In this document: positions 2,448 through 44,004 of the stretch, in pieces
How positions within the stretch are numbered: the stretch's first letter is position 1
Layout: each line of letters starts with the position of its first letter
Origin: Candidatus Omnitrophota bacterium
GTDB lineage: Bacteria; Omnitrophota; Omnitrophia; Omnitrophales; Aquincolibacteriaceae
Length of the DNA: 64,000 bases
Reading direction: 5' to 3'
NCBI GenBank assembly: GCA_035352955.1
Contig: DAOPYQ010000006.1
Coordinates: 90,456-154,455, forward strand
Notes under the pieces: model-generated
Databases searched by the model: none
What the model saw: only the letters and a program-made list of their open reading frames with translations
What the model was told of the DNA's origin: nothing
Made by a program: the position numbers and the translations under genes

Positions 2448-4529
2448 ATGACCATTAGAGAAAATCCCGTCCAAGAGGGCCGGTGTCCCTGGTCCGAAGC
2501 TTCCGCTGACTCTGAGGCGGCGAAGTCTGCCCATGCCGCGATCTCGGGGTACGAGCGATTCCAGATCTACATAATCAAGCCCTCCAAATACGATGACGAG
2601 GGCTATATCATTCGCTATTGGAAGGGGGTCCTTCCCAGCAATACGCTTGCCTGCCTCTACGGGCTTACCGAGGATGTCCGGGAGCGGGGGGTCCTGGGCA
2701 GTCAGCTGAAGTGGAATATCGAGCTGATCGACGATTCAGTTCAGAGTGTCCCTTACCGGGAGATTTTCCGTAAGAGCCGTTGTAAAAAAACAAAAGTGCT
2801 CGTGGTTCTGGCCGGCGTCCAGACGAACCAGTTCGTTCGGGCGTCCGACCTGGCCTTGAAGTTCCGCAAGGCGGGGATTGATGTTTTGATCGGCGGGTTT
2901 CATGTGAGCGGTGTGCTATCGACGCTTCCGGATCTTACCCCGGAGCTTGTAACATTGAAAAACGCAGGTGTGACGATTGTTGCCGGGGAGGCCGAAGGCG
3001 GGCATTGGGAGAACCTGTTGCGGGACACGCTTCAGGATTCGTTGCAGCCGGTCTATAATTTTTTAAATGATTTACCCGATATCTCGTGCTCACCGTTCCC
3101 GCGGAGTCATCCCAAACTCAGGAAGCATTACTCGCTTCAGCATTTCGGCACGCTTGATTGCGGCCGGGGCTGTCCGTTCGGTTGCAGTTTTTGTACCGTG
3201 ATCAATGTGCAGGGCCGGCGCATGAGGTTTCGCGCGGCGGACCAGATCCTTGCGAAGATCCGCAGGGATTACCGCCGTGCCGGTATCACGCATTATTTTT
3301 TCACTGACGACAATTTTTGCCGCAACAAGAACTGGGAGGCGATCTTTGACGGGCTGATCGAGATGCGTGAAAAGGAAAAGATGCCCATTCTTTTCATGAT
3401 GCAGCTCGACACCCAGTCGCATCTTGTTCCCAATTTCGTCGATAAGGCGGCCCGTGCGGGATGCGCGCAGGTTTTTATCGGGATGGAGAGTTTGAATCAG
3501 GAGAACCTCAAGGCCGCGAAGAAGACCCAGAACGAGATCGAGAATTTCAAACACCTCGTGGATTCTTTTCAAAAAGCGGGGATCATTTGCCACCTGGCTT
3601 ATATCATCGGTTTTCCGCTCGATACGGTCGCCTCGGTCAAAAAAGATGTCGAACAGCTCATGACGCTCCATGCCGGACAGGCGTCTTTTTTTATGATGAC
3701 GCCGTTGCCCGGTTCCGTTGACTACAAAAACGTTCGTGAAAAACGCGTGCTTCTGGATGCGGATCTGAACAATTACGACACCTTCCACGAAACGCACCGT
3801 CATCCCCGGATGAAACCGGGCGAGTGGCAGCGGGCTTACGAGGAGGCGTGGAAAAGTTTTTATAATATCGAGAACATGAAAACGATCATGCGGTTCGCGA
3901 GACCTGACAACTACTGGGGCATTTTCTTTAACTTTGTCTGGTACAAGAACTCGATTCAGGTGGAAGGGGGACACCCGATGCTTCACGGATTCGTCCGTTT
4001 CAAGCCGCGCCTTGACCGCCGGACCGGGTACCCCGTGGACGGGCGGTGGAAACATTTTAGACGCAGGGTTGTTGAGGTCCGGGATGAAGTGGTCGGGTGG
4101 TTTCGGTTGTCTCTTGAGCTTGAGGAAGTCTGGCTGGCAACGCGGAAACGCCGTCCTCTCGAGGAAAAGGTTATCGCCGAATTGGCCCGGATCACTCAGA
4201 GCGTAAAAGAATGGCGTGACCTGCGTATCTCCGAGCTTCAGGAGCTTTATAAAAAAGCCGCCGAGGCCCTTTCTAGAAAAGGGACTGAAAAGATCCGCGT
4301 GCCGTCTCGGATCCAGCTCTGGTTTCTTAAGGGAAATCTTTTTTATGATAAATTGACGTTCACCCGGGTGCCGATGCGGCGGTTTTGGCAACAGGCGCGC
4401 ACTTACTTTAAACAGGGCAAGATCTTTAAAGTTGATTACTTCCGGCTCGTACGGACCTGGCTTGAGGAAGCGTTCCTTTTTCTGCGCTTCCTCCGTTCTC
4501 TTGTCAAATCTGACACGTTCCTGACCTGA
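2448..4529 (+). CDS. B12-binding domain / radical SAM / DUF4070-type enzyme (class B radical SAM), paralog 1
   Basis: 693 aa. N-terminal Rossmann-like B12-binding region. Radical SAM motif CGRGCPFGCSFC (CxxxCxxC). Long C-terminal extension typical of DUF4070-containing B12-rSAMs. Confidence 0.8.
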   Translation: MTIRENPVQEGRCPWSEASADSEAAKSAHAAISGYERFQIYIIKPSKYDDEGYIIRYWKGVLPSNTLACLYGLTEDVRERGVLGSQLKWNIELIDDSVQSVPYREIFRKSRCKKTKVLVVLAGVQTNQFVRASDLALKFRKAGIDVLIGGFHVSGVLSTLPDLTPELVTLKNAGVTIVAGEAEGGHWENLLRDTLQDSLQPVYNFLNDLPDISCSPFPRSHPKLRKHYSLQHFGTLDCGRGCPFGCSFCTVINVQGRRMRFRAADQILAKIRRDYRRAGITHYFFTDDNFCRNKNWEAIFDGLIEMREKEKMPILFMMQLDTQSHLVPNFVDKAARAGCAQVFIGMESLNQENLKAAKKTQNEIENFKHLVDSFQKAGIICHLAYIIGFPLDTVASVKKDVEQLMTLHAGQASFFMMTPLPGSVDYKNVREKRVLLDADLNNYDTFHETHRHPRMKPGEWQRAYEEAWKSFYNIENMKTIMRFARPDNYWGIFFNFVWYKNSIQVEGGHPMLHGFVRFKPRLDRRTGYPVDGRWKHFRRRVVEVRDEVVGWFRLSLELEEVWLATRKRRPLEEKVIAELARITQSVKEWRDLRISELQELYKKAAEALSRKGTEKIRVPSRIQLWFLKGNLFYDKLTFTRVPMRRFWQQARTYFKQGKIFKVDYFRLVRTWLEEAFLFLRFLRSLVKSDTFLT

Positions 4530-4562
4530 AGACAGGTCCGGTAAAAGAAAGCGACGATCCTC

Positions 4563-6173
4563 GTGAAGGTTTATCTGATCCACCCAAAATTTGAACCGAC
4601 GATCTGGTCCTTCGAAGGTCTCCAACCGTTCACTGGGACGCGTTTTTCCACGACGCCGCTGGGGCTGGCTACCGTGGCGGCCCTGACCCCGGTATCGTGG
4701 GAAGTCGAGATCGCCGATGAGAACGTGGAAGCGATCAATTTTGAGACGGACGCCGACTTGATCGCGATCGGGGTTTTTAATGTGCAGTACCGCCGTGCGC
4801 TCGAGATCGCCGCGGAATTCCAAAAACGCGGTAAAAAAATCGCGTTCGGCGGTCCCTACAACAGTCTTTTCCCGGAAGCTTTTGAAGGGAAAGGTGATCA
4901 CCGGATCGTCGGTGAGGCCGAAGAGATCTGGCCGGAGTTCCTGAACGACTTTGAAGCTGGGAAAGCCCGCGAATGTTATACGGCGCGAAAAGAAAAGGTC
5001 GATATCCGCAAAAGTCCCGTTCCGCGTTACGACCTGATCCATGGCGATCGCTACAATATGTTTTCCCTTCAGACGAGCCGCGGTTGTCCGTTCAACTGCG
5101 AATTCTGCGATATCATTATCATGGACGGCCGCGTGCCGCGCACCAAGACGGTCCAGCAGGTCATTGACGAAGTCGACCATTGCGTGAAACAGGGAGCGCA
5201 CTATATTGTTTTTGGGGATGCCAATTTTATCGGGAACTTGCCGTTTGCCCGCGAGATGTTGAAAGGATTGGCGGAGTATTCGAAGAAGAACGGTTATCCG
5301 ATCGAGTTCTCTTGCGAGCTGACGATCAACGTGGCGCATCATCCGGATATTCTCGAGTTACTCCAGGCCGCGAATTTTTATTCCGTATTCGTCGGGATCG
5401 AATCGCCTCGCAAGACAAGTCTTCTGGAGTCGGGAAAGTCCCAGAACACCCGTGAGAACGTTCTCGAAGACATCAAACGTATCCAGTCTTACCACATTTC
5501 CGTCGTGGCCGGAATGATCGTGGGATTTGATTCCGACGACAAGCAGATCTTCAAGGAGCAGTACGATTTTCTCGAGGAGCTCGGGATTCCTTTTACCACC
5601 TGCGGGACGCTGATGGCGCTTCCGAAGACACCGCTTGCGAAGCGTCTTGAGGCCGAAGGCCGTTTGCTGGACAGTGAATGGACCGAGATGAACGGGCATG
5701 GTGCGTCCGACTGCAATTTTGTACCGAAGCACATGACGGTGGAGGAGATCCGCCGGGGGTACAACTGGCTGAGCCGTTGCCTTTACCGGTACGACAGCTA
5801 CGCAGACCGGCTTGTGACAGCGCTCAATCGTTTCCAGAACCGTAATAAAGAACACAAACGGGCCAATTTGGATTTCAAGTTTCTAGGGGTTTTGACGAAG
5901 GTTATCCTATATTACGTTTTTACCTTTGATAAAAAACGCCGTGATTTTTTTCTTAAAACATTTTTGCGCGTGGCGACCGGCGGGCCTTTTTCGGTGGGAA
6001 AATGGCTGGAATTTTTCCGGTGGATTGCGACGCACCGCGCTTTCCGGAAGTACGTGACCGAGACGCAGGGGGATCCAGAAGACATGAATCCCGCGGAGCC
6101 GCCGTTTCCGGTCGATGCGGCCAAAGAGGATCCCGATTCGATGCCGGACAAAGAACTGGTTTTGAACCCCTAA
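4563..6173 (+). CDS. B12-binding domain / radical SAM / DUF4070-type enzyme, paralog 2
   Basis: 536 aa. B12-binding N-terminus. CxxxCxxC motif SRGCPFNCEFC. Same architecture as the upstream gene. 34-nt gap from it. Confidence 0.8.
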   Translation: MKVYLIHPKFEPTIWSFEGLQPFTGTRFSTTPLGLATVAALTPVSWEVEIADENVEAINFETDADLIAIGVFNVQYRRALEIAAEFQKRGKKIAFGGPYNSLFPEAFEGKGDHRIVGEAEEIWPEFLNDFEAGKARECYTARKEKVDIRKSPVPRYDLIHGDRYNMFSLQTSRGCPFNCEFCDIIIMDGRVPRTKTVQQVIDEVDHCVKQGAHYIVFGDANFIGNLPFAREMLKGLAEYSKKNGYPIEFSCELTINVAHHPDILELLQAANFYSVFVGIESPRKTSLLESGKSQNTRENVLEDIKRIQSYHISVVAGMIVGFDSDDKQIFKEQYDFLEELGIPFTTCGTLMALPKTPLAKRLEAEGRLLDSEWTEMNGHGASDCNFVPKHMTVEEIRRGYNWLSRCLYRYDSYADRLVTALNRFQNRNKEHKRANLDFKFLGVLTKVILYYVFTFDKKRRDFFLKTFLRVATGGPFSVGKWLEFFRWIATHRAFRKYVTETQGDPEDMNPAEPPFPVDAAKEDPDSMPDKELVLNP

Positions 6174-6176
6174 ATC

Positions 6177-6818
6177 ATGCGACTAATACCTTTCGACGAA
6201 CGAGTCTGGCCCGGAGCGATACTTCTCGGGGTACTGATCCTTGGGGCCCTTTTCTTCAACCTCAGAATCCTTGTTCCCGTATTTGGAGTCCTGCTGGTCG
6301 CGCATTTTCTCTTTTTTCGCGATCCCGTTCGAACATCGGAGGGGGAGGGTCTCTTCGCCCCGGCTGATGGGAAGGTCATAGGGATCGACGAGGTTTTTGA
6401 GGATAAATTTCTACACGAAAAAGCGATCCGTATTCGCATTTTTCTTTCGGTTTTTGACGTGCACGTGACCCGTTCGCCGCTTGCGGGCGTTGTGAAGTAC
6501 CAATACTATGTGAAGGGGAAGTTTTTCAACGCTCTCCGGAAACTTGCATTCGAGTACAACGAATCAAATTGGATCGGGATCGAGAACCATGAACGCCGTG
6601 TGCTGATCCGCCAGATGACCGGGGCAATCGCACGGCGCATTTACTCCGATGTCAAAATTGGCCAGGTGGTCGGACGAGGCGAGAAGGTCGGAATGATCTG
6701 CTACGGTTCCGGCGTCGAGTTTTTCATTCCCCAAAGGTCGTTTCAACCGGGCGTTTCCGTCGGGCAGCATGTTGCGGCGGGGATGACCGTTCTGGGACAG
6801 TGGACTAATGGACATTAA
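6177..6818 (+). CDS. psd: phosphatidylserine decarboxylase family protein (short, archaeal-type proenzyme)
   Basis: 213 aa. N-terminal TM helices, conserved FLSVFDVHVTRSP and GSG autocleavage-like motif. Starts 4 nt after rSAM-2 stop. Confidence 0.7.
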   Translation: MRLIPFDERVWPGAILLGVLILGALFFNLRILVPVFGVLLVAHFLFFRDPVRTSEGEGLFAPADGKVIGIDEVFEDKFLHEKAIRIRIFLSVFDVHVTRSPLAGVVKYQYYVKGKFFNALRKLAFEYNESNWIGIENHERRVLIRQMTGAIARRIYSDVKIGQVVGRGEKVGMICYGSGVEFFIPQRSFQPGVSVGQHVAAGMTVLGQWTNGH

Positions 6819-7563
6819 GCCCAAGAACACGAAAAGCCGTTTTTATTTTGCGACAGCTGCTTTCCCGAACATGATCACGATGCTCAATTTGATCTCGGGA
6901 TTCTTCTCGATCCTCATGAGCATCAACGGAAAGTATGAGTTTGCTGCGTGGCTCGTGCTTCTGGCGCTCGTTCTTGATTCTTTTGACGGTCACGTGGCGC
7001 GTATCTTTGGGAATGAAACGATCTTCGGACGGGAGCTTGATTCGCTTTCGGACGCGGTCTCCTTTGTGCTGGCGCCTTGCGTTTTTGTGGCGATGCTGTT
7101 CACCCCGAAGCTTTCCATGGTGATGCTCCTTGTGATTCTTCTTTACCTCTGCTCCGGGATCTTCCGTCTGGCCCGGTTTAATGTGAACCCCACGACAGCC
7201 GGGGGAGCGTTCGAAGGATTGCCCACGCCTGCCGCGGCTTTGACGCTTCTCATGACCCTGGTGGCATTCCATAAGAATCACTGGGAATCACACACTTCCT
7301 ATTGCCTGGTATTGATGACGGCACTGGCTTTCCTGATGAGCAGCGATATTCCGTATCCCAAGATTTCGGCGATCAAATTTCGCAGTTGGCGGACGCTTTT
7401 TGTCGTGCAGCTTACGCTTTTGATCCTGACTTACGTTTATCTGAACATTGAAAGCGCCATTGCGATCGTTTTTCTGGCGTTCCTGATCCTGTCGCCGTTT
7501 TATTGCATGGTGCTCAGCGATCAAGGCTCGTCCGCGGCGAACGGCGAGAAAGAGGAATCTTGA
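6808..7563 (+). CDS. pssA: CDP-alcohol phosphatidyltransferase (CDP-diacylglycerol--serine O-phosphatidyltransferase-like)
   Basis: 251 aa polytopic membrane protein with the CDP-OH transferase motif DSFDGHVAR...G..LDSLSD. Overlaps psd by 11 nt. Confidence 0.75.
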   Translation: MDIKPKNTKSRFYFATAAFPNMITMLNLISGFFSILMSINGKYEFAAWLVLLALVLDSFDGHVARIFGNETIFGRELDSLSDAVSFVLAPCVFVAMLFTPKLSMVMLLVILLYLCSGIFRLARFNVNPTTAGGAFEGLPTPAAALTLLMTLVAFHKNHWESHTSYCLVLMTALAFLMSSDIPYPKISAIKFRSWRTLFVVQLTLLILTYVYLNIESAIAIVFLAFLILSPFYCMVLSDQGSSAANGEKEES

Positions 7564-7564
7564 A

Positions 7565-8179
7565 ATGCTGTTCGGGATCCTTGCCGGATTTTTAGGATCA
7601 AGCCTGGGGTGGCAGATCAATCTCATCGCGATCAATCGCGGGTTGAGACGTGGCCGGATGGCGGCATTTCTTGTCGGGTTCGGTTCGGTGGCAGCCGACA
7701 TGATTTTTCTCTATGTCGGTCTTGCCGGGGCGGCGCCCCTTTTGATGCATCCGGACTGGTGGAGGATCATTCGCTGGGTCGGGATCGTCGTTCTTTTTTC
7801 GCTGGCGGCGCGGACGTTGCTGGCGCACGGGAAATCACGTCCGGAGATCGAGGAAGTCGAGAAGAGGAACCCGACCAAAAATTTTCTTGTGGGGTTTCTT
7901 GTCGTGATGACGAATCCGGCCGTTTTTCTGCTTTGGATGGGCGTGGTGAGCTTCTTTATGGCCCATTTCCCGGAGATGAGGCAGCCGTGGGCCAAGGAGT
8001 TTTTTCTCGCTGGATATCCGATCGGGGCGGGGATGTGGTTTGGCCCGCTGGCGTTTATTTTTCTTAAAAGATTGAGCCGTTGGGGCGAGAGAAATTCCGG
8101 CGTTACTTCCAAGCTTTCGGCGGCGTTATTGATCCTTGTGGCTCTTTTTTTGATCTTTGAGAAGTTTAAAATATCTTAA
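7565..8179 (+). CDS. LysE/RhtB-family small membrane protein (translocator fold)
   Basis: 204 aa, 5-6 predicted TM helices, LysE-like N-terminal region. Start 2 nt after pssA stop. Confidence 0.5.
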   Translation: MLFGILAGFLGSSLGWQINLIAINRGLRRGRMAAFLVGFGSVAADMIFLYVGLAGAAPLLMHPDWWRIIRWVGIVVLFSLAARTLLAHGKSRPEIEEVEKRNPTKNFLVGFLVVMTNPAVFLLWMGVVSFFMAHFPEMRQPWAKEFFLAGYPIGAGMWFGPLAFIFLKRLSRWGERNSGVTSKLSAALLILVALFLIFEKFKIS

Positions 8180-8274: not shown

Positions 8275-8425
8275 GACATCACTTTCCGTTATATTCGTTT
8301 CTTCTGAAAACTGCTGGATTCGATTTTATCGTTGTCTTTATTTAGTTTATTCTCGCACATGCTAGCATTACGAAGTGTTGTCGTTATTTTTGGAAGAGGT
8401 TGTTCTAAAACGGAGAGATTGGGAA

Positions 8426-9466
8426 ATGGGATTGTTTTCACGGAAAAAGAAAACGACCAAAAGTAAAAAAGAAGCGCCCGCTAAAAAGGCGGCTGCGTCT
8501 CAGCCGAGACGTACGAACGGCGCACGCAAAGTTGCCAGCCGTTACCCCAAGGCAGTCCCGCAGGTCCAACCTAATGCCCCGATGGCCGAGAGGCTTGAAA
8601 TTCCTCCGCTTCCTGAAGAGTCGGTGTGCCCCAAAGCCGAAACTCGTTCCGTGGAAATGCCTCGTGAGTTGCCCGACAATTACGGTGATAACCAGATTTA
8701 TTTGCTCGTCCGCGATCCTTACTGGGTTTACTCTTATTGGGAGATCCAGCACGATCATCAGATGAAGAATCTCGCTAAACTTGGCGGGAGTTGGGATTCG
8801 GTTGTTTCCGTGTTGCGCGTTTATGACATTACGGACTCGAAAAAAGCGGCGCCTTTTTTCGATATCGTTCTCCAGAACATGGTCAAGGCCTGGTACCTAA
8901 ACGTCCAACCCAATCACAGCTATGTTGTCGAGCTCGGACTGCTTCACAAGGATGGCCGTTTCATTTGCCTCGCACGTTCGAATGAAGTGACTACACCGCG
9001 GTCGGGGATGTCCGAGGTGATCGACGACCAGTGGATGTCGGTCGATTTTGAAAAAATGTACGCGCTTTCGGGCGGTTTTCAGGTTGGCAAGAGTTCCGCC
9101 GAGCTTCGTAAAATGATGGAGGAACGCCTTAGAGGCGCCATTACCTCGGGTTCCGGTGCCGGGGCCATATCGAGCATGGCCAGTCCCGTGAGGATCAAGC
9201 AGCGCGGGTTTCATTTCTGGCTTGAGTGTGAATTGATCATTTACGGTGGTACTGAACCGGATGCCAAGGTGACGATGCAGGGACGGCCGGTTCAGCTTCG
9301 TCCGGACGGGACATTTACGTTCCGTTACGCGCTTCCTGACGGAAAATTTGTTTTTGATTGTCACGCCGAATCCGCGGACGGCATCGAGGAGAGGGTCATT
9401 ACCCCGATCGTCAGCCGGAACACCGAAAGGCCCGCTCCTGTTTTTAAGGCAGGAAAGAAAAGCTAG
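8426..9466 (+). CDS. DUF4912-like protein (glycogen-cluster associated)
   Basis: Start chosen at ATG 8426, preceded by GGAGAG. K/A-rich N-terminus then a globular domain. Positioned immediately upstream of the GH57 enzyme, as is typical for DUF4912. Confidence 0.6.
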   Translation: MGLFSRKKKTTKSKKEAPAKKAAASQPRRTNGARKVASRYPKAVPQVQPNAPMAERLEIPPLPEESVCPKAETRSVEMPRELPDNYGDNQIYLLVRDPYWVYSYWEIQHDHQMKNLAKLGGSWDSVVSVLRVYDITDSKKAAPFFDIVLQNMVKAWYLNVQPNHSYVVELGLLHKDGRFICLARSNEVTTPRSGMSEVIDDQWMSVDFEKMYALSGGFQVGKSSAELRKMMEERLRGAITSGSGAGAISSMASPVRIKQRGFHFWLECELIIYGGTEPDAKVTMQGRPVQLRPDGTFTFRYALPDGKFVFDCHAESADGIEERVITPIVSRNTERPAPVFKAGKKS

Positions 9467-9468
9467 CG

Positions 9469-11046
9469 ATGGAAAAGGGATTTCTTTCCATAGTTCTTCA
9501 CGCACATCTTCCGTTCGTCCGCCATCCTGAACACGAATTTTTCCTCGAAGAGACCTGGCTCTATGAAGCCATTACCGAGACCTATATCCCGCTTATCCAT
9601 ATGTTTGAAGGTCTGGAACGGGACGGGGTTCCCTGGCGCCTTACGATGTCTCTTACGCCGTCGCTTATGTCGATGCTTCGTGACGAGCTTTTGCAGGACC
9701 GCTATCTTGCCCATCTCAACAAGCTGATCGAGCTTGCCAATAAAGAGATCGAGCGGACGCGTTTTCAGCCGCAGTATCACGAAACCGCCCTGCATTATTA
9801 CTGGGAGTTTACGCGGGCGAAAGAGACCTTCCTTGACCGTTATCACAAGGATCTGACCCAGGCGTTCCGGAAATTCCAGGACCACGGGCATCTCGAGATC
9901 ATCACTTGCGCGGCGACCCACGGATTCTTGCCGCTCATCAGCCGCAATGAAGGGACCGTTCGCGGGCAGATCAAGACCGCTACGGATCTTTATGAAAAGG
10001 TTCTCGGCCGCAGGCCTATCGGTATCTGGCTTCCGGAGTGCGGGTTCTATCAGGGCGTGGACAAGTATCTCAAGGAGCAGGGGATCCGGTATTTTCTCAC
10101 CGACACGCACGGGATACTTCATGCTTCGCCCCGGCCGAAGTACGGTGTGTTTGCCCCGATCTTCTGTCCGAGCGGTGTCGCTGCGTTCGGCCGGGATGTG
10201 GAATCTTCCAAACAAGTTTGGTCTGCCATCGAAGGTTATCCGGGTGATCCGGACTACCGTGAATTCTATCGCGATATCGGTTTTGAACTTGATTGGGACT
10301 ACATTCGTCCGTATATTTCTCCGGACGGTCTCAGGATTAACACCGGGATCAAGTACCATCGCATTACGGGGAATACCGAGGACAAGCAACCGTATGTTCG
10401 CTCCTGGGCGATGCACAAGGCGGCGAGTCACGCGGGCAATTTCATGTTTAACCGTGAAAAACAGGTCGAATACCTCCACGATTTCATGGGTCGCAAGCCC
10501 CTGATCGTCGCGCCGTATGATGCCGAACTTTACGGTCACTGGTGGTATGAGGGGCCGGACTTCCTGAATTTTTTTGTGCGAAAAACCGCGTTCGATCAGA
10601 AGATGTTCCGCCTGATCGCGCCGTCAGATTATTTCAAGGAATATCCCGTCAACCAGGTTTCGACGCCGTCTTTTTCGAGCTGGGGCTGGAAAGGGTTCAG
10701 TGAGACCTGGCTTTCGGGCGCGAACGACTGGATTTACCGCCATTTGCATAAGGCGTCGCTGCGCATGACCGAGATGACTCAAAAGTTCCGCGGGCAGAAC
10801 GGGATCGCGAGCCGGGCCCTCAAGCAGGCAGCCCGCGAGTTGTTCCTTGCGCAGTCGAGCGACTGGGCTTTTATTATGCACACCGGAACGATGGTTCCGT
10901 ATGCCGTGAAGCGTACGAAGGATCACCTGCTTAATTTTACGCGTCTCTATGAAGATCTGATGGGGGGGCGGCTGGACGAAAGCTGGTTGCGGGAGCTGGA
11001 AGGGAAGAACAATATCTTCCCGGATGTGGATCACGAAGTCTTTTAA
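9469..11046 (+). CDS. glgB: GH57-family 1,4-alpha-glucan branching enzyme
   Basis: 525 aa. N-terminal HAHLPFVRHPEHEFFLEE motif and TxDxHG catalytic region characteristic of GH57 branching enzymes. Confidence 0.85.
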   Translation: MEKGFLSIVLHAHLPFVRHPEHEFFLEETWLYEAITETYIPLIHMFEGLERDGVPWRLTMSLTPSLMSMLRDELLQDRYLAHLNKLIELANKEIERTRFQPQYHETALHYYWEFTRAKETFLDRYHKDLTQAFRKFQDHGHLEIITCAATHGFLPLISRNEGTVRGQIKTATDLYEKVLGRRPIGIWLPECGFYQGVDKYLKEQGIRYFLTDTHGILHASPRPKYGVFAPIFCPSGVAAFGRDVESSKQVWSAIEGYPGDPDYREFYRDIGFELDWDYIRPYISPDGLRINTGIKYHRITGNTEDKQPYVRSWAMHKAASHAGNFMFNREKQVEYLHDFMGRKPLIVAPYDAELYGHWWYEGPDFLNFFVRKTAFDQKMFRLIAPSDYFKEYPVNQVSTPSFSSWGWKGFSETWLSGANDWIYRHLHKASLRMTEMTQKFRGQNGIASRALKQAARELFLAQSSDWAFIMHTGTMVPYAVKRTKDHLLNFTRLYEDLMGGRLDESWLRELEGKNNIFPDVDHEVF

Positions 11047-11074
11047 TCCTACTCAAATAAGAAAGGGAATTTCC

Positions 11075-11284
11075 ATGCAGGAACAGTATTACGGAATCGG
11101 GGAAACGGCGGGGAAGATCTACAAATGTCTCGAACAAAAAGGGGAGCAGACCCTTGCGAAGGTCCAGAAAGATATTGGCGCGGACGCGGACATTTTCAAC
11201 CAGGCGGTCGGATGGCTTGCCCGTGAAAATAATATTAATTTCAACAAGATGGGCAAAAACGTCAAAATTTCCCTGCTGAAATAG
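11075..11284 (+). CDS. small winged-helix-turn-helix protein (DUF2582-like)
   Basis: 69 aa from ATG 11075, preceded by GAAAGGG. wHTH-like pattern. Confidence 0.55.
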   Translation: MQEQYYGIGETAGKIYKCLEQKGEQTLAKVQKDIGADADIFNQAVGWLARENNINFNKMGKNVKISLLK

Positions 11285-11484
11285 GAGCATCCCGGTTGCA
11301 AGCGCTTTGAGGCGCGGGGCGGTCAACGTCCCGCGCCTTTTTTTTTATGTCTATGGCTGGCTTCCCACGCAGGACCCGGCTTTTACCGGTTCGGAGACCG
11401 AGTCTTTGAAATGGTGTGGATCTCTTTTAAGGAAATGCCTCCGGGAACCGATACATATAACCAAAGAGGGGAAGAGGCACGGTT

Positions 11485-12960
11485 ATGCGCAAACATCCGC
11501 AGTTAATGGAGTTGAACGCCTTTTTCTTCGTTTCCAGGATGTCCGAGAAATACGGACGCAAGCTGACGCTTTCCACGGTCCCGGACGAAGAGTGGCGTGT
11601 CTTCGCAGACAGGGGATTTGACTATCTTTGGCTGATGGGCGTCTGGGAACGGAGCCCAGGCTCGCGGGCGCACGCCCAGAAGGAGCCCAATCTTGTCCAC
11701 GCTTATGACATGATCCTTCCGGGGTGGAAGAAAGAGGATGTTGCGGGATCCCCGTACGCGATCCACAATTACGAGTTGGATCCGTATCTCGGCAACCCCG
11801 ATGAGCTTTTCCAGCTCAAGATGAAGCTGAACGGTATGGGGATAGGGCTTATTCTTGATTTTGTCCCCAACCATCTTGCGTTCGATCATCCCTGGACCGT
11901 CGAACATTCCCGGCGTTTCGTGTCCGGTAAGAAGGAAATCCTGAAGGCACATCCGGAGTGGTTTTTTAATACCGCGAACGGAAAAAAGCTTGCCCACGGC
12001 CGGGACCCTTATTTTCCGGCGTGGATCGATACGGCCCAGGTCAATTTCTGGTCTGCCGATCTCCGCCGCGCTTGGCTCGAAACGCTCCAGAAAATCGCCA
12101 AGGTTGCCGACGGTGTGCGTTGCGATATGGCGATGCTCGGGCTCAACGAAGTTTTTCGGGAGGTTTGGGGAGAACATATCTCGGATACGCAGCCGCAGAC
12201 GGAATTTTGGGCCGAGGTGATCCCCCGAGTGAAGCAGATATCGCCCAATTTTATTTTCATGGGAGAAGTTTACTGGGATCTTGACTGGGCGCTTATGCAG
12301 CTCGGGTTTGATTTTACTTATGACAAACGGCTTTATGACAGGCTTTATTACGATTCGCCGGTTTCTGTTCGCGATCATTTGAAGGCGGATCCGATCTACG
12401 CGGACCGGTGTTTGCGTTTTATCGAGAACCATGATGAAGAACGTGCGGTCGTGAACTTCGGAAGAAAAAAGTCCCAGGCGGCTGGCATGATCGCGGCGAC
12501 GATTCCCGGGATGCGGTTCTTCCACGATGGACAGCTTGAGGGGCGGAGGATCCGCACGCCGGTCCATTTGCGTCGCGAGCCCGCCGAACCTGCGGAGGCG
12601 GCGACCCGGGATCTTTACGAGCGTCTGCTGAAATACATCAAACCCGCAGTGACCCATGATGGGACGTGGACGCTTCTTACGACCCGTCCGGCATGGGACA
12701 AAAACGAAACGTACCAGGGAATCATCTCCTGGCTTTGGCAGCAGGGGGATCAGTGGAAGCTTGTTGTGATCAATTACTCGATGATCCGCGCCCAGGCTTT
12801 TGTCAAACTCCCGCAAGTTTTGAACGAGAAATTTTTTATTCAATTCCGCGACGCGCTTACGGGGAAAGCGTATGAACGCGCTGGCGAAGAACTTGCGGCG
12901 AAAGGGCTTTACGTTGACCTTGAGCCGTGGCAGGCCCATCTTTTCGACTTCGTTATTTAG
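11485..12960 (+). CDS. alpha-amylase family glycoside hydrolase (GH13 catalytic domain)
   Basis: 491 aa. GH13 region II-like DFVPNHLAFDHPW and TIM-barrel pattern. Start codon uncertain. Confidence 0.7.
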   Translation: MRKHPQLMELNAFFFVSRMSEKYGRKLTLSTVPDEEWRVFADRGFDYLWLMGVWERSPGSRAHAQKEPNLVHAYDMILPGWKKEDVAGSPYAIHNYELDPYLGNPDELFQLKMKLNGMGIGLILDFVPNHLAFDHPWTVEHSRRFVSGKKEILKAHPEWFFNTANGKKLAHGRDPYFPAWIDTAQVNFWSADLRRAWLETLQKIAKVADGVRCDMAMLGLNEVFREVWGEHISDTQPQTEFWAEVIPRVKQISPNFIFMGEVYWDLDWALMQLGFDFTYDKRLYDRLYYDSPVSVRDHLKADPIYADRCLRFIENHDEERAVVNFGRKKSQAAGMIAATIPGMRFFHDGQLEGRRIRTPVHLRREPAEPAEAATRDLYERLLKYIKPAVTHDGTWTLLTTRPAWDKNETYQGIISWLWQQGDQWKLVVINYSMIRAQAFVKLPQVLNEKFFIQFRDALTGKAYERAGEELAAKGLYVDLEPWQAHLFDFVI

Positions 12961-13052
12961 AATTGCCGCATTCAACGCTTGGAGAGATCCCCATTCTTTG
13001 TTAAGCTGTACAAATCTGACGCATTGAGAGTCAAATTCTATTAGGAGATAAA

Positions 13053-15557
13053 ATGTCGCGAGCCAAGAAAAAGATCCAGGAACCCGAACCCGAGGTCAAA
13101 GAACTCTGGCAACCTGAGCATAAGGGGATGACCAAAGAAGGGCTCAAGCTGTCTTTTAGCTCCAGCCTGCAATACGGGCTCGCCAAGGATCAGTACACGG
13201 CAACTTCCCGCGATAATTTCATGGCGCTTGGCATGTCGCTCCGCGACCGCCTGGTCGAGCGCTGGATCCAGACCCAGCAGGGGTACCACAAAAAGAAACA
13301 AAAACGCGTTTACTACCTTTCCCTGGAATTCCTGATCGGACGGCTCCTCGGTAATTACGTCCTGAACCTCGGTCTTTGGGACCAGACCCAGAAGGCTCTC
13401 GAAGAATTCGGTCTTGATCTCGAAAAGGTCCGCAATGAAGAAGTCGACGCGGGCCTCGGGAACGGTGGTCTTGGCAGATTGGCCGCGTGTTTTCTTGATT
13501 CCATGGCCACGCTCGGGATTCCGGCCCATGGCTACGGGATCCGCTACGATTACGGGATCTTCAACCAGAAGATCGTCAACGGCTACCAAGTGGAATCTCC
13601 GGACGAATGGCTCAAGCATGGAAACCCCTGGGAGTTTGCGCGTCCCGAATACTCCCAAAAGATCAAATTTTACGGCAACACCAACATGTACCACGATAAG
13701 CAAGGGCGCCTTTCGGTGGAGTGGGTGAACACGGAGGATGTCCTTGCGATGCCGTATGACACACCGGTGCCCGGGTATCAGAACGACGTCGTGAATACGC
13801 TCCGTCTTTGGTCGGCGAAGAGTTCCGAAGAGTTCGATTTCCAGTATTTTAACGACGGGGACTACGAGCGCGCGGTTTATGACAAGATGTTCACGGAGAA
13901 CATTTCCAAAGTGCTTTATCCGAATGACGCGACATCGATGGGACGCGAGCTCCGCCTCAAACAGGAATATTTCTTTACGGCCGCTTCCATCGCCGACATC
14001 ATCCGCCGTTTCAAGGAAGACAATGCGGTCCTCAAAAGTTTTCCCGATAAGGCGACGATCCAGCTGAACGATACCCATCCCGCCCTCGCCATCGTCGAGT
14101 TTATGCGCATTCTGATCGATGAAGAGCAGGTCGACTGGGATACGGCGTGGGACCTGACCGTTCGGACCTTTGCCTATACGAATCATACGGTGATGCCGGA
14201 AGCGCTTGAGTGTTGGGCGGTTCCGATGTTTGAAAAACTCCTTCCGCGCCATATGCAGATCGTCTATGAAATCAATGGCCGTTTTCTGAAAGATCTCTCG
14301 TCCCAATATCCTGGCGATCCGGATCGGCTCCGCCGGATGTCGGTGATCGAAGAGGGAAACCCGAAGCGGATCCGCATGGCGTTCCTTGCGATTATCGGTT
14401 CTCATTCCGTCAACGGTGTCTCTGAGCTGCACTCCGAACTTCTTAAGGAGCATCTCTTCAGGGATTTTTATGAGGTTTTTCCGGAGAAGTTCAACAACAA
14501 GACGAACGGGATCTCGCACCGTCGCTGGCTTATCAAGGCGAACCGGCCTCTCGCGAGGCTTCTGGACGAGGCGATCGGAGAAAGTTGGGAGCGGAATCTC
14601 AGCGATCTTGATAAGCTGATTGGCATCAAGAAGGACCGGCTGCTCAAGAAAAAATGGCAGCAGGTGAAGCGCGATAACAAGAAGGTCCTGGCGGAGCTGA
14701 TCCGTGAGAGCACGGGAGTCATCGTGAATCCGGATTCCATATTTGATGTTCAGGTGAAGCGTATCCATGAGTACAAGCGCCAGACTCTTTTTATCCTCTA
14801 CGCCATTTCCGAGTATCTAAAGTTGCGGGAGAACCCTGCCGCGGTTTTGACGCCGCGCACATTCATTTTTGGCGGCAAGGCGGCTCCCGGTTATTTCATG
14901 GCCAAGTTGATCATCAAGTTCATCAACAACGTCGCGGATGTGATCAATCACGACAAGCTAAATAAAGACAAGCTTAAGGTCGTGTTCCTTGAAAATTACC
15001 GCGTGTCATTGGCGGAGAAGATCTTTCCCGCGAGTGATCTTTCCGAACAGATTTCGACGGCCGGAACCGAGGCCTCGGGGACGGGTTGCATGAAATTCAT
15101 GATGAACGGCGCGTTGACCGTGGGGACTTACGACGGCGCGAACATCGAGATCGCCGCGGAAGTCGGTGAGGAGAACATTTTTATGTTCGGACTCAAGGCT
15201 CCGGAAGTTCTGGAGCTGAAAAACCGCGGCTATGATCCGAATGAATTCATCCGGAAATCGCCGCGGCTGGGGGAGATCCTCCAAATGATCCGGAACAATT
15301 TCTTTTCGCCGATGGAGCCGGGCATCTTCGACCCGCTGGTCAATAATCTGACCGGTTCGGACCCGTATCTGGTTTGTGCGGATTTTGACGCCTATTGCGC
15401 AATGCAGGGGCGGATCTCTGAGGAATACCAGGATCAGGACAAGTGGACCGAGAAGGCGATTCTTAATGTGGCAAAATCCGGAAAGTTTTCAAGCGATCGG
15501 ACGATCGAGGAATATGCCAGGGACATCTGGAACGTTCCGGTCCAGATACCGCGCTAA
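13053..15557 (+). CDS. glgP: glycogen/alpha-glucan phosphorylase
   Basis: 834 aa. PLP-site motif EASGTGCMKFMMNGALTVGTYDGANIEI. Full-length GT35 architecture. Confidence 0.9.
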   Translation: MSRAKKKIQEPEPEVKELWQPEHKGMTKEGLKLSFSSSLQYGLAKDQYTATSRDNFMALGMSLRDRLVERWIQTQQGYHKKKQKRVYYLSLEFLIGRLLGNYVLNLGLWDQTQKALEEFGLDLEKVRNEEVDAGLGNGGLGRLAACFLDSMATLGIPAHGYGIRYDYGIFNQKIVNGYQVESPDEWLKHGNPWEFARPEYSQKIKFYGNTNMYHDKQGRLSVEWVNTEDVLAMPYDTPVPGYQNDVVNTLRLWSAKSSEEFDFQYFNDGDYERAVYDKMFTENISKVLYPNDATSMGRELRLKQEYFFTAASIADIIRRFKEDNAVLKSFPDKATIQLNDTHPALAIVEFMRILIDEEQVDWDTAWDLTVRTFAYTNHTVMPEALECWAVPMFEKLLPRHMQIVYEINGRFLKDLSSQYPGDPDRLRRMSVIEEGNPKRIRMAFLAIIGSHSVNGVSELHSELLKEHLFRDFYEVFPEKFNNKTNGISHRRWLIKANRPLARLLDEAIGESWERNLSDLDKLIGIKKDRLLKKKWQQVKRDNKKVLAELIRESTGVIVNPDSIFDVQVKRIHEYKRQTLFILYAISEYLKLRENPAAVLTPRTFIFGGKAAPGYFMAKLIIKFINNVADVINHDKLNKDKLKVVFLENYRVSLAEKIFPASDLSEQISTAGTEASGTGCMKFMMNGALTVGTYDGANIEIAAEVGEENIFMFGLKAPEVLELKNRGYDPNEFIRKSPRLGEILQMIRNNFFSPMEPGIFDPLVNNLTGSDPYLVCADFDAYCAMQGRISEEYQDQDKWTEKAILNVAKSGKFSSDRTIEEYARDIWNVPVQIPR

Positions 15558-17023: not shown

Positions 17024-17072
17024 ACGGGCGTTGTTTTTTATTCCTCAAAGCTTGTCAGCCGATGAGGTGAGC

Positions 17073-20000
17073 ATGAAAGTGGACCCTTCGAAGCATTGGG
17101 TGGACGGTAAGTATTCCATCCGGGAGCTTGTCGATCTGGGGGAATTGCGTTCTCTTTTCCAGAGTTTTACGGATTCCATGGGTTTTACCATCGGCTTTTT
17201 AAGTATTCCCGACCTCGAGATTCTGATCGCTACCGGATGGCGCGATATTTGCACGAAATACCACCGCCAGTGCCCTCTTGCCATGACCCGGTGCCGCATG
17301 AGCAATGATCGCCTGATCCGCCATCTGAAACGTCCCGGCCAGATCGTGATCGAGGGCTGTGAGAATGGGCTGGTCGACTGTGCCACACCTATCATCATCA
17401 AAGGCAAGAAGATCGCCATCCTCGCGACCGGCCAGGTCCTCCTCAAACCGCCCGATATGAGCTATTTCAAGAGACAGGCCAAATTGTTCGGATGTAATGG
17501 AGCCGCCTACCTGCGTGCCGTAAAAGAAGTTCCCGTGATCTCCGAGAAAAAACTGAAACAGGCGACGCGATTTCTGGGTGAGTTGGCCCACATGATCATT
17601 CAGATGGGCCATGCCGGTCTTGCGGAGAAAGAGCGTGCCGAAGCCCTAGGGCAGGAGATTCGCCGGCGGGAGGGGACAGAGATCGTGCTGAAAGACACTC
17701 TGGATCAATTGGGAGCCCTCTACGACGGTATGACCGACGGTATCATTGTGGGCGATGTGAAGACCAAAAAGCTCCTTAAGGTTAATGCGAGCGCCTGTCG
17801 GATGTTCGGATATTCCGAAAAAGAAATCCTCACAAAAAAAGTTCGGGATATGCATCCTCAGCAACACCTGAAAAAGGTTTTTAGTTTCTTCCGTAGCTTG
17901 ACGCGAAAGGAGAAACTTGTTGCATTGGATGTTCCGTGCAAGAAAAGGGACGGCGCTGTTTTTTTTGCGGATGTTGCGGGAAATAAGACCCGTTTTGAAG
18001 GAAGGGATTGTCTCGTCGGATTCTTTCGGGATGCCACGGAAAGGAAAATGGCGGCAGAATCTCTCCGGATGAGCGCCAAGGATTGGCAATCTACATTTGA
18101 TGCTGTCACGGACGCTGTCTGGCTCCTGGGCCTGGACGGGCGAGTTCTCCGGACTAACAAGGCAGCTTCCCGGTTATTTGGGAAAAAATCCGGAGAGATC
18201 CTCGGACACCGTTGCTGTGAAATGGTTCACGGGACCTCCCAGCCCCCTAAAGAATGTCCCATGCTCAGGATGCGAAAGACGCTTCGTCGTGAGTCCTCGG
18301 AGATCCGTCTCGAGGACCGGTGGCTTTCCATAACGGTGGACCCCACTTTTGACAAGGCCGGTGTCTTGAACGGTGCCGTCCACATCGTGAGTGATATTAC
18401 GGACCGTAAACGGTTGGATCTGTCACTGCACGAAAGCGAAGAGCGGTTACGCATGGTCCTCGACAGCTCCCTCGACCTGATCTATCGGCGTAATTTGAAG
18501 ACCGGCTGCTACGATTATCTTAGCTCTGCCGTCAGGCGGCATACAGGCTATGCCGCGCATCAGTTGGTGGGAGCAAAGGCCGGACGTTCGATGTTTCGGC
18601 GCATTCATCCTGAAGATCTTCCGCGCGTGCGGAAGGCTTTGCTTGCCGCCCGGTTCGGTCGGGAAGCTCAAGGAATTTTGGAGTATCGGTTCCGTCATAG
18701 AAATGGCAGGTACCGGTGGTTTTCTGATCGCTTTACAGTTGTGAAGGACGAGACCGGGCGTCCGCTTCATTGGTTGGGCGTGTCCCGCGACGTTACGGAA
18801 CACAAGAAAATAGCCGGGGCTCTCGTTGAAAGTGAAAGGCGCTATCGTCTCCTGACCGAGAATTCGAGTGACGTGATATGGACCATGAATTTAGACGGAA
18901 AATTCACCTATGTCAGCCCGACGACCTACCAACTTCGCGGTTATACTTCCGAGGAAGTTATGCGCCAACCTCTGGACAAACAGGTCGCGCCGGGCTCTTT
19001 GCCTCTGGCAATAGCAACCCTGGATCAAGTGCTCAAGAAAGGCCGGAGGGGGATTCTTGTGCCGCGGAGGGTTGTTGATGTGGAGCAGCTTTGCAAGAAT
19101 GGTTCTACGGTCTGGACTGAAGTTTCAATTGAGCTTGTCCGGGATAAAGTGAACGGTGTTCTTTTTCTTCTGGGAGTGACGCGGAACATTACGGAGCGTA
19201 AGCGGACTCTTGAGGAGTTGGAAAAATACCGCGGGCATCTCGAAGAGATTGTGATGTCGCGGACCCGGGAGGTGAACGACGCCCGGAACTTTTTGGACAA
19301 GATCATTAACACCATGGGGAACCCTGTTTTTGTCAAGGACCGGAAACACCGCTGGGTTCTCCTGAACGATGCGTATTGCAAATTTATGGGGTATCGCAGG
19401 GAGCAGCTGATCGGTAAAAGTGACCGCGACTTTTTTTCGCCGGGAGAGGCCAAGGTTTTTTGGGCCAAGGACGAGATTGTTTTTCGAACCGGAAAGGCCA
19501 ATGTTAACGAAGAGAAATTCACCGACGCGAGAGGCTGTACTCACACGGTACTTACGAAGGAAGTGCTCTATAAGGAAAAATCCGGACAGAACTATATCGT
19601 TGGGATCATTACCGATATTACGGAGCGGGAACGAACGGAGCATCGGATCCGTGAAAATGAGGAGAAAATCCGGCGGATCACCAACGCGCTCCCCTCGGTC
19701 GTCTACACTTATCAGATGACGCCGGATGGTAAACAGCAGCTCACGTTTCTCAGCCCGCAGGTGAGAAAACTTTTCGGGATCTCTCAGCGTTCAGTCTTGA
19801 AAGATTTCTACATCCTTTGGAATCGGGTCGTCAAGGAGGACCGGAAGCCCCTTTATGCATCCATCCGGAAATCTTTCAAGGCACTAACTCCTTGGGAGTA
19901 TGACTTCCGCATCATTACACCGACGGGGATCCACAAATGGATTCATGGGGAGTCCGTTCCGGAGAGGCCTCTTCCCGATGGGCATGTCATCTGGCATGGC

Positions 20001-28928: not shown

Positions 28929-28937
28929 CCCATTTCC

Positions 28938-28971
28938 AAGACCGGGCCTTACAATTCCAAGGCCCGGTCTT
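28938..28971 (+). terminator. hairpin AAGACCGGGCC-N12-GGCCCGGTCTT after hcp (weak U-tract)
   Basis: 11-bp perfect stem read directly. Poor T-run, so possibly a stabiliser rather than an efficient terminator. Confidence 0.4.
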
Positions 28972-29097
28972 TGGATCGTGGAATGCGTTTGGTGGAATGC
29001 AAGTTTCGTGATTAAATAGTGCGTGTTTTGGTGCCTGAGACCCCCTGATCGAGAACGTGACGACGGGGGTTTTTTCTTAAAGAGCAAAGGTCAAAAG

Positions 29098-29901: not shown

Positions 29902-30004
29902 AGGGGAAAGAACTATCCAGATTGTTCTGATGGAGTGAAGAATGGTCAGGATTGCCATTGGGTACAAAAATAAGTAGACTAGGGCTCTTTCAAAGGGAGA
30001 AATT

Positions 30005-43848: not shown

Positions 43849-44004
43849 GCTCGCGCAATGTAAAAGTTTTTTGTTGACCGTCCAAACTTTTTCTTTTTTT
43901 AAAAAGGTAGTTTGGACGGCCCCAATCTCCGCTTCGCTTTGATTGATTGGTATGGGGGCCGTTGCGCAAAGTGATATGGAAAAGAAAAATTTAAGGAGTC
44001 ACGT

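Follow-up and report, generated by a model that had tools for sequence, protein, structure and literature searches.

Within a 64,000-nt (64-kb) stretch of a Candidatus Omnitrophota metagenome-assembled genome (MAG), hereafter the window, open reading frame (ORF) calling delineates a block of five ORFs, all on the + strand, at positions 2448–8179. The first two encode radical S-adenosylmethionine (SAM) proteins, which we call rSAM1 and rSAM2, and the other three encode a predicted phosphatidylserine decarboxylase (psd), a predicted phosphatidylserine synthase (pssA) and a LysE-family membrane protein:

2448–4529, + strand: rSAM1, 693 aa, ATG start (NCBI HNX68963.1)
4563–6173, + strand: rSAM2, 536 aa, GTG start
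6177–6818, + strand: psd, 213 aa
6808–7563, + strand: pssA, 251 aa
7565–8179, + strand: LysE-family membrane protein, 204 aa

Only 33 nt separate rSAM1 from rSAM2, 3 nt rSAM2 from psd and 1 nt pssA from the LysE-family gene, while psd and pssA overlap by 11 nt. On the 5′ side of rSAM1 a 283-nt gap leads to a divergent gene, and a 195-nt gap follows the block. The five genes thus form a compact co-directional unit that is probably co-transcribed. A preliminary description, made from the letters of the stretch, had listed the same five tightly packed genes and given 693 and 536 aa for the first two, which the ORF calls bear out; its 11-nt overlap is exact, and the gaps that it gave as 4 and 2 nt are 3 and 1 nt. 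NCBI records of the same MAG hold all five proteins unchanged, under generic names.

The two rSAM proteins share an overall plan, a Rossmann domain followed by a radical SAM barrel, and carry the cluster motifs named in the preliminary description, CPFGCSFC and CPFNCEFC. Their mapped features are:

rSAM1, about aa 37–205, + strand: Rossmann-like N-terminal domain, with GGFHVSG at aa 149–155
rSAM1, aa 242–249 (nt 3171–3194), + strand: CPFGCSFC cluster motif of the barrel
rSAM1, aa 480–693 (nt 3885–4526), + strand: basic, helical, family-specific C-terminal domain
rSAM2, aa 175–182 (nt 5085–5108), + strand: CPFNCEFC cluster motif of the barrel
rSAM2, aa 356–501 (nt 5628–6065), + strand: DUF4070 (PF13282; E 4.9e-15, 56.3 bits, cut-off 22)

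Both are radical SAM superfamily members, with Radical_SAM (PF04055) scores of 56.5 bits for rSAM1 and 67.1 bits for rSAM2 (cut-off 29.5). They part company at the C terminus. The last 214 aa of rSAM1, a helical domain kept in all its orthologues, give no Pfam match up to E = 10, to DUF4070 or otherwise, whereas rSAM2 continues from its Rossmann domain and barrel into DUF4070, so that the DUF4070-like extensions first ascribed to both proteins stand for rSAM2 and fall for rSAM1. By the same token rSAM2 has the B12-binding/Radical_SAM/DUF4070 architecture of the ‘HpnP-like’ proteins (Hoshino et al. 2023, PMC10697835), with Radical_SAM and DUF4070 detected directly and B12-binding (PF02310) on record for its orthologues, and rSAM1, having no DUF4070, does not. 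rSAM2 starts on GTG, and MKVYLI opens its orthologues.

Neither protein reaches any curated NCBIfam family, the models compared including HpnR, HpnJ, BchE, a ladderane-type lipid rSAM, PhpK-type P-methylases and MgmA. Best scores are 57–79 bits against cut-offs of 360–775, and equivalog scores fall 5- to 20-fold short. For rSAM1 the values are 62.8 bits for HpnJ (TIGR03471, cut-off 578), 62.3 for BchE (TIGR02026, 481), 57.4 for TIGR04072 (360) and 38.8 for HpnR (TIGR04367, 650); rSAM2 scores best against TIGR04072 (79.1), followed by HpnJ (53.2), BchE (31.9) and HpnR (31.6), with the same cut-offs. By these scores both proteins lie outside every characterised non-lipid family. We conclude that rSAM1 is an orphan family of class-B-type radical SAM enzymes and that rSAM2 is another, separate from it. 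Profile–profile alignment with hhalign relates the two with 99.9% probability at 27% identity, over rSAM1 residues 35–477 only; the homology covers the Rossmann and barrel parts, and the C-terminal domains do not align, so the term ‘paralogous’ used earlier applies at superfamily level.

AlphaFold models of the two proteins (pLDDT 86 and 87) predict a class-B fold for each, a Rossmann-like domain fused to a radical SAM barrel. Their best Foldseek matches, over both domains, are AprD4, TsrM, CysS, MgmA, TokK and OxsB (E 1e-13 to 1e-18; 14–19% identity). The nearest solved structure to rSAM1, by sequence and by fold, is AprD4, and the nearest to rSAM2 by sequence is MgmA (9CCB, E 5e-11), a protein glutamine C-methylase (PMC11796369). 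The Pfam B12-binding model (PF02310) reaches E ≤ 0.01 on neither window protein and is recorded for many rSAM2 orthologues; of the B12-binding radical SAM assignment made at the outset, the class-B fold is thus upheld by the models and the Pfam match is not found. With a pI of 10.6, the two C-terminal domains are strongly basic; they are also aromatic-rich and helical, and neither rSAM1 nor rSAM2 has a transmembrane helix. Basic amphipathic domains of this kind would fit peripheral docking on an anionic membrane.

In the closest relatives with upstream sequence, a cobalamin-riboswitch-controlled operon for B12 uptake and salvage lies directly 5′ of rSAM1 and runs into it:

L001:1313–6954, same strand as rSAM1
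L004:1192–6871, same strand as rSAM1
L043:728–6954, same strand as rSAM1

This operon encodes a TonB-dependent receptor, a BtuF-like binding protein, a FecCD permease and a CobO/BtuR adenosyltransferase, and in L001 it ends 46 nt before rSAM1. We infer from the fold and from this B12-uptake context that both rSAMs probably use cobalamin, the operon in relatives being the best available support, of an indirect kind. It is odd regulation for genes that lie upstream of those for B12-dependent enzymes to be under riboswitch-off control. No cobalamin riboswitch was found in the 64-kb window itself, such riboswitches being present in relatives only.

The downstream genes read as head-group enzymes of familiar type, in agreement with the identities first proposed. 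The psd product matches PS_Dcarbxylase (PF02666; 1e-33, 117.1 bits, cut-off 22) and has N-terminal membrane helices, an FDVH element at aa 93–96 and a YGS self-cleavage site at aa 176–178; its best NCBIfam equivalog score, 192 bits, stays under the cut-off of 225, which places it at family level, and it is predicted to be a short-type phosphatidylserine decarboxylase proenzyme. The pssA product matches CDP-OH_P_transf (8e-20), passes the TIGR00473 equivalog (120.9 bits, cut-off 107) and stays below the archaetidylserine synthase models (140 and 126 bits, cut-offs 240 and 200). It carries the full CDP-alcohol phosphatidyltransferase motif D-x2-DG-x2-AR-x8-G-x3-D-x3-D at aa 57–82 (nt 6976–7053; DSFDGHVARIFGNETIFGRELDSLSD) and is a predicted CDP-diacylglycerol–serine O-phosphatidyltransferase of that family. 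Together, pssA and psd would convert CDP-diacylglycerol to phosphatidylethanolamine (PE) in the ordinary two steps, by way of phosphatidylserine (PS). The fifth protein matches the LysE family (PF01810; 6.7e-23, 81.6 bits, cut-off 25.6), is polytopic with 4–5 hydrophobic segments and reaches no NCBIfam exporter equivalog. Its gene and rSAM2 are present or absent together in related genomes, and in L018 it adjoins pssA.

At least 386 GTDB species genomes encode a full-length rSAM1 orthologue (45–74% identity), and an exhaustive profile search returned 1,192 clusters (50% identity) at E ≤ 1e-30, all under generic names. We analysed the best 80 of these at least 386 species loci by tblastn, ORF clustering and a neighbour-joining (NJ) tree, reading GC-rich loci such as L034 by tblastn. 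These 80 come from Omnitrophota and from many Acidobacteriota (Bryobacteraceae, Solibacteraceae, Terriglobia, Vicinamibacteria), with single MAGs from Ignavibacteriota, Bacteroidota, Nitrospira, Melainabacteria, Zhuqueibacter, UBP4 and Syntrophobacter. rSAM2 is narrower in range: its orthologues (≥53% identity) are essentially Omnitrophota plus a few outliers, and a profile built from its most distant matches gained just two new sequences. At 20 of these 80 loci, corresponding to 20 species-level genomes, psd, pssA or both come after rSAM1, which there is 57–68% identical to that of the window. The contigs of L001 and L013 stop inside rSAM2 and are consistent with the order rSAM1–rSAM2–psd–pssA. 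Within this group the upstream neighbour varies (HemY, cobO, a ketoacyl-ACP synthase (KAS; ACP, acyl carrier protein) or other genes) while rSAM1–rSAM2–psd–pssA–LysE stays intact, which is mild evidence of operon integrity. The parts are nevertheless separable, since two members of the group (L020, L049) keep rSAM1–psd–pssA without rSAM2 and the LysE-family gene, and a sister lineage (L018, L092) keeps the rSAM1–rSAM2 pair without psd–pssA. In one MAG (GCA_016930235.1; L035 and L088) the rSAM1 and the rSAM2 orthologue lie on separate contigs, and neither adjoins psd–pssA, so the two families also co-occur unlinked.

Apart from psd and pssA, the neighbours of rSAM1 follow two themes, and we gave weight to immediate, recurrent neighbours only. 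The first is acyl metabolism. A PaaI-type hotdog thioesterase lies directly 3′ of rSAM1, across gaps of a few nucleotides, at 11 loci in two deep Omnitrophota clades, making it the most widely conserved rSAM1 neighbour in that phylum; a KAS gene stands directly 5′ of rSAM1 in L002, L003 and L036 and divergently in L030, and an OlsE-like fatty-acid hydroxylase follows rSAM1 in L045. The second is heme and N-oxide metabolism. HemY, a protoporphyrinogen/coproporphyrinogen oxidase (TIGR00562, 210 bits, cut-off 97.85), is directly 5′ of rSAM1 at nine loci of the psd–pssA group, and in a GC-rich Omnitrophota clade (clade C) rSAM1 sits between AhbC/NirJ1-like and AhbD/NirJ2-like radical SAM/SPASM genes, with translational coupling of all three in L047. 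Loci of this clade have a NirA-like hemoprotein upstream, NnrS and HemA (glutamyl-tRNA reductase; L040) downstream, and a 480-aa NMO-like protein:

L047:5766–10093: GC-rich rSAM1 locus
L045:2220–12404: GC-rich rSAM1 locus
L036:3080–13496: GC-rich rSAM1 locus
L040:4720–12679: GC-rich rSAM1 locus

The themes meet here, as clade-C loci also hold KAS (L036) and hotdog thioesterase genes (L042, L051); L036 additionally carries another B12-binding radical SAM gene. NorB and hemerythrin follow the rSAM1–thioesterase pair in L090, and HemY-like and TIGR04053 radical SAM/SPASM genes lie 4 kb downstream of rSAM1 in L030. The latter two belong to a row on the − strand (L030:9473–15339), 0.4–6 kb from rSAM1, that also encodes ThiH-like, spore-photoproduct-lyase-like and BioB proteins, four of the five being radical SAM genes. 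In such rSAM-rich islands, some neighbour associations could arise through co-regulation and not through a shared pathway. We considered the AhbD-like neighbours as candidate lipid cross-linkers of the Gms type, Gms being an AhbD homologue with a ~100-aa N-terminal extension (PMC11214058), and rejected this, as they measure 345–373 aa in most loci and are without the Gms extension; they are better read as AhbD/NirJ2/TIGR04053-type proteins.

For rSAM2, we inspected ten orthologue contexts outside the psd–pssA block, and acyl or lipid genes are present in seven of them, counting the weaker P0215, in which a GDSL lipase and a methyltransferase are the neighbours. The clearest is P0188 (71% identity; L093:7001–14074, GCA_016179745.1), where rSAM2 is the first gene of a tightly packed operon in the order rSAM2, class-I methyltransferase, ACP, holo-ACP synthase, an unknown 141-aa protein, KAS, KAS and NAD_binding_4 reductase, with Lnt upstream. 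This operon resembles a dedicated, undescribed acyl-ACP lipid or polyketide-like cluster of an Omnitrophota MAG. Elsewhere rSAM2 has an MprF-like LPG_synthase_C gene upstream and LuxC, hexapeptide transferase, LuxE and LuxD-like genes downstream (P0236), LuxD-like (Acyl_transf_2) and AMP-binding acyl-CoA ligase genes (P0233), diacylglycerol kinase (DAGK) and MMPL (P0207), or an MprF-like LPG synthase and a 4HBT thioesterase (P0182). In P0232 its neighbours are a P450, a hydrolase, a FabH-like protein, a CMAS-like methyltransferase and two further B12-rSAM/DUF4070 genes. A metagenomic locus (L081:1070–10665) encodes three B12-rSAM/DUF4070 proteins, a P450, an alpha/beta hydrolase, a CMAS-like methyltransferase and a FabH-like protein fused to a haem-oxygenase-like domain. 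Lipid genes were not found in the P0225 and P0242 contexts, and P0149 reads rSAM1–rSAM2–IlvD.

The best explanation for the locus, to which we assign a probability of roughly 0.45, is a probably co-transcribed unit whose two orphan class-B rSAMs modify fatty-acyl-derived lipid chains, with the adjacency of psd and pssA being lineage-specific. The acyl or lipid substrate is suggested by the recurrent ACP, KAS, thioesterase, LuxCDE and phospholipid contexts and by the basic amphipathic C-terminal domains; a lipid-directed role is plausibly supported, independently of the block, at these other loci, especially for rSAM2. Each enzyme would use its [4Fe-4S] cluster and a SAM-derived 5′-deoxyadenosyl radical, probably together with cobalamin, to act on unactivated carbons of such chains. 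C-methylation, the default of class-B enzymes, would be the most likely chemistry, and desaturation, cyclisation or C–C coupling are possible, with ring formation and desaturation on record for class-B lipid enzymes (PMC13459092; 10.1101/2025.10.20.683597). rSAM2 would most likely act on membrane phospholipid or acyl-ACP chains and rSAM1 more likely on an acyl-thioester or lipid precursor, because its oldest conserved partner is the hotdog thioesterase and KAS is sometimes upstream. Placing psd and pssA next to the pair would put acyl-chain modification and head-group synthesis under one promoter, an arrangement that would not by itself define PS or PE as the substrate.

Several observations weigh against this explanation. 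Both rSAMs are far from every characterised lipid enzyme by NCBIfam scores, AprD4, the best structural match, has the same fold and binds no cobalamin, and the proposed lipid role concerns a phylum whose lipids are uncharacterised. The heme/N-oxide neighbourhood of rSAM1 is equally recurrent, its conserved neighbour in Acidobacteriota is a non-lipid gene for a Gfo/Idh/MocA oxidoreductase, and with many neighbourhoods inspected some thematic recurrence is expected by chance. As for the synteny, the rSAM–psd–pssA neighbourhood is conserved beyond this genome, which runs counter to the lack of conservation that the preliminary description had named as part of a refuting outcome. The conservation is nonetheless shallow: all 20 linked loci fall into one monophyletic Omnitrophota clade in the NJ tree, and at 55 other loci, from Omnitrophota, Acidobacteriota and further phyla, neither psd nor pssA lies within 7 kb. 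The conserved block also runs on into two non-lipid genes, for a DUF4912 protein and a GH57 branching enzyme, that are 84–93% identical; the genomes sharing it are therefore fairly close relatives, and since glycogen genes are part of it, the psd–pssA linkage may reflect inherited gene order and not functional coupling.

The stronger version put forward initially is a dedicated five-gene module whose two rSAMs act on acyl or alkyl chains of the PS- and PE-type lipids that the co-encoded PssA and Psd make; the LysE-family protein would then be a membrane partner or flippase. We consider this version unlikely. It draws on the tight spacing (11-nt overlap, gaps of 1–3 nt), on a gene order that recurs in 20 species genomes and remains unbroken while the upstream neighbour changes, on the co-presence or co-absence of rSAM2 and the LysE-family gene, on rSAM2 relatives beside other head-group enzymes (MprF-like twice, DAGK once) and on the precedent of Tes and Mss, rSAMs that act on complete phospholipids (PMC13159169, PMC13459092). 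Set against this are the restriction of the linkage to a single clade and its absence at 55 other loci, the persistence of the rSAMs without psd–pssA or without each other (L018, L092, L020, L049), the resemblance of psd and pssA to housekeeping PE genes, the glycogen genes inside the conserved block, and the thioesterase, KAS and ACP contexts, which suggest pre-phospholipid substrates. For some family members at least, the thioesterase and ACP contexts favour an acyl-thioester over finished PS or PE. What is supported of the initial proposal is a plausible lipid role; PS or PE as the substrate and the dedicated module are not supported. A different division of labour, a credible rival although we regard it as doubtful to much the same degree, makes rSAM1 a tetrapyrrole enzyme of heme, modified-heme or N-oxide metabolism, similar to BchE, BchQ or BchR, leaves only rSAM2 lipid-directed and treats the adjacency as incidental. 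The nine loci with HemY/CgoX directly 5′ of rSAM1 speak for it, as do the AhbC/NirJ1-like and AhbD/NirJ2-like flanking genes with NirA-like, NnrS and HemA genes, the HemY-like and TIGR04053 genes of L030, the NorB and hemerythrin genes of L090, and the 62-bit match of rSAM1 to BchE, one of its best in NCBIfam. That score is far under the cut-off of 481, however, and no better than those of P-methyltransferase or HpnJ models, the clade-C loci carry KAS (L036) and hotdog thioesterase genes (L042, L051) as well, and no step in anaerobic heme synthesis is known to require a class-B rSAM. AhbD homologues can themselves act on lipids, as Gms does (PMC11214058), and the 64-kb window has no heme gene.

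That neither rSAM is lipid-related, the two being modifiers of protein, peptide, cofactor or small metabolite that share a promoter with psd–pssA through the packing of unrelated housekeeping genes in these small genomes, seems to us quite improbable. Such a reading would suit the kinship of rSAM2 with MgmA, its closest solved relative (a protein glutamine C-methylase; 9CCB, E 5e-11), the predominance of natural-product, RiPP (ribosomally synthesised and post-translationally modified peptide) and cofactor enzymes among class-B rSAMs in the NCBIfam match list, the rSAM-rich surroundings in which rSAM1 often lies (ThiH-like, SPL-like and BioB in L030), the two rSAM2 contexts without lipid genes and the housekeeping character of the remaining window. 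It sits poorly with acyl and lipid genes recurring beside both families in independent arrangements, with C-terminal domains that suggest membrane docking and with the annotated contexts, in which no precursor-peptide-like or RiPP genes were seen. Least probable of all, in our estimate, is action of one rSAM on a polar head group (serine, ethanolamine, glycerol or a sugar/cyclitol), comparable to ring contraction by HpnJ/Cds or diol dehydration by AprD4. By sequence and by fold rSAM1 matches AprD4 best, its top NCBIfam matches include HpnJ, its gene in Acidobacteriota comes after that of a Gfo/Idh/MocA sugar-type dehydrogenase and near a PIG-L deacetylase gene, and the window operon itself encodes head-group enzymes; but these scores, far under their cut-offs, reflect the shared core only, the operon has no glycosyltransferase or sugar-nucleotide gene, and acyl substrates are favoured by the thioesterase, KAS and ACP contexts.

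Around the block, the 283-nt gap 5′ of rSAM1 contains one sigma-70-like promoter match:

2359–2388, + strand: TCGACA-18-TAAAAT, 10/12 matches

This is a possible operon promoter, on weak evidence, as a scan for promoters and terminators found no excess over shuffled sequence (3 promoter sites in the upstream region against 4.3 expected). We dismissed a 750-aa ORF on the − strand (3090–5342), antisense to both rSAM genes, as spurious, given the hundreds of conserved orthologues of the + strand ORFs. The divergent gene beyond the gap (5–2164, − strand) encodes 719 aa with one strongly hydrophobic segment (aa 553–591) and belongs to no Pfam or NCBIfam family, a HEAT_2 match being sub-threshold; it takes the place of the HemY, cobO or KAS genes that relatives have upstream of rSAM1. 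Directly 3′ of the block lies a glycogen row (8375–15557) encoding a DUF4912 protein, a GH57 branching enzyme, an alpha-amylase-family protein and glycogen phosphorylase, the first two genes of which are syntenic with the rSAM–psd–pssA block in all related genomes. Further along are a 1,654-aa sensor histidine kinase with an N-terminal PocR sensory domain and many PAS domains (17031–21995) and, after it, a GAF-ANTAR regulator (22475–23227). A hybrid-cluster (prismane) protein, a 292-aa radical SAM protein and NadA (27252–30961), together with a flavodiiron-type protein (33245–34441), are consistent with an anaerobic lifestyle. SufB/SufD-type genes and a gene for a SufS-type class-V aminotransferase (42412–47395) indicate Fe-S cluster assembly, which is relevant to an rSAM-rich genome. 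A tRNA gene occupies 61353–61425. No heme gene (hemY and ahb included), no KAS gene and no thioesterase gene was found in the 64-kb window.

It is plausible that rSAM1 and rSAM2 are new class-B rSAMs that modify acyl lipids in bacteria. Methylation, cyclisation and desaturation of lipid chains, those of hopanoids and archaeal tetraethers, are all catalysed by enzymes of this class (PMC13459092; PMC11214058; 10.1101/2025.10.20.683597), and a 2026 review counts no characterised member that acts on the ordinary fatty-acyl phospholipids of bacteria (PMC13459092). Both orphan families are large and are found in uncultivated anaerobic Omnitrophota and in Acidobacteriota. If the lipid role is true, they would provide genes for oxygen-independent chain tailoring in bacteria and gene markers for orphan sedimentary lipids; if false, the locus is an ordinary mixed housekeeping operon. 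The extra methyl branches of iso-diabolic acid and branched glycerol dialkyl glycerol tetraether (brGDGT) lipids underlie widely used palaeotemperature and pH proxies, and the methylases that add them are still unidentified. One could go further and suppose that one or both families are the missing oxygen-independent enzymes that add carbon to, or otherwise remodel, saturated fatty-acyl chains of bacterial membrane lipids; as rSAM1 orthologues are widespread in Acidobacteriota, these branch methylases would then be among them, although we regard this as a long shot. The lipid idea lends itself to direct testing, as Escherichia coli produces PE, imports B12 and has served for the anaerobic expression of Mss.

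Full-text literature searches (Omnitrophota with radical SAM and lipid; DUF4070) gave no description of an rSAM–psd–pssA module, in line with its earlier designation as undescribed. The 2026 review of lipid rSAMs lists Tes, Mss, Gms, GrsA/B, Gmm and Cds as well as HpnH/J/P/R, Jaw5 and the putative ladderane enzyme, none of them acting on bacterial PS or PE (PMC13459092). Of these, Tes (GDGT-MAS) and the bacterial Mss join chain termini of complete phospholipids (PMC13159169, PMC13459092), and in Black Sea metagenomes 15 of 267 Omnitrophota MAGs have Mss homologues and 93 of 267 have ElbD homologues (PMC11868695). They differ from the window rSAMs in domain architecture and are not class B; we rejected a Tes/Mss-type synthase identity, as neither rSAM matches the GDGT-MAS structure in the PDB at E ≤ 1 and both have class-B architecture. 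BchE resembles rSAM1 in being class B, but its substrate is a porphyrin and rSAM1 scores 62 bits against a cut-off of 481, whereas AhbC, AhbD and NirJ, although neighbours of rSAM1 orthologues, are SPASM-type and not class B.

The closest architectural parallel for rSAM2 is with HpnP, HpnR and the HpnP-like proteins, whose three-part organisation it has in common and rSAM1, without DUF4070, does not. Both HpnP and HpnR depend on cobalamin and methylate an unactivated carbon of a lipid (PMC10697835, PMC13459092). rSAM2 differs from them in its score against HpnR (31.6 bits, cut-off 650) and in having fatty-acyl and phospholipid, not hopanoid, neighbours, no squalene-hopene cyclase being seen around the rSAM2 orthologues inspected. 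In Archaea, the ring synthases GrsA and GrsB, Gmm and GDGT methylases and the Ted desaturase are class-B rSAMs whose genes often cluster with those of other lipid rSAMs (PMC11214058; 10.1101/2025.10.20.683597); they have the class-B core in common with the window pair and act on saturated membrane lipid chains of anaerobes. Their substrates are isoprenoid tetraethers, whereas the window host is a bacterium with an ester-lipid PE pathway. The ladderane-cluster enzyme TIGR04072 of anammox Planctomycetota is a class-B rSAM encoded among ACP and FabF-type genes, as is rSAM2 at L093, although rSAM2 is not a member (79 bits, cut-off 360) and the function of the ladderane enzyme is itself putative (PMC13459092). 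The structural matches AprD4, TsrM, MgmA, OxsB, CysS and TokK have differing C-terminal domains, and none is a membrane-lipid enzyme. Omnitrophota and anammox Planctomycetota both belong to the Planctomycetota–Verrucomicrobiota–Chlamydiota (PVC) superphylum. CysS and TokK, which have the same two-domain fold as the window rSAMs, methylate carrier- or pantetheine-bound substrates, and this chemistry fits the ACP and thioesterase contexts in which rSAM1 and rSAM2 orthologues are found.

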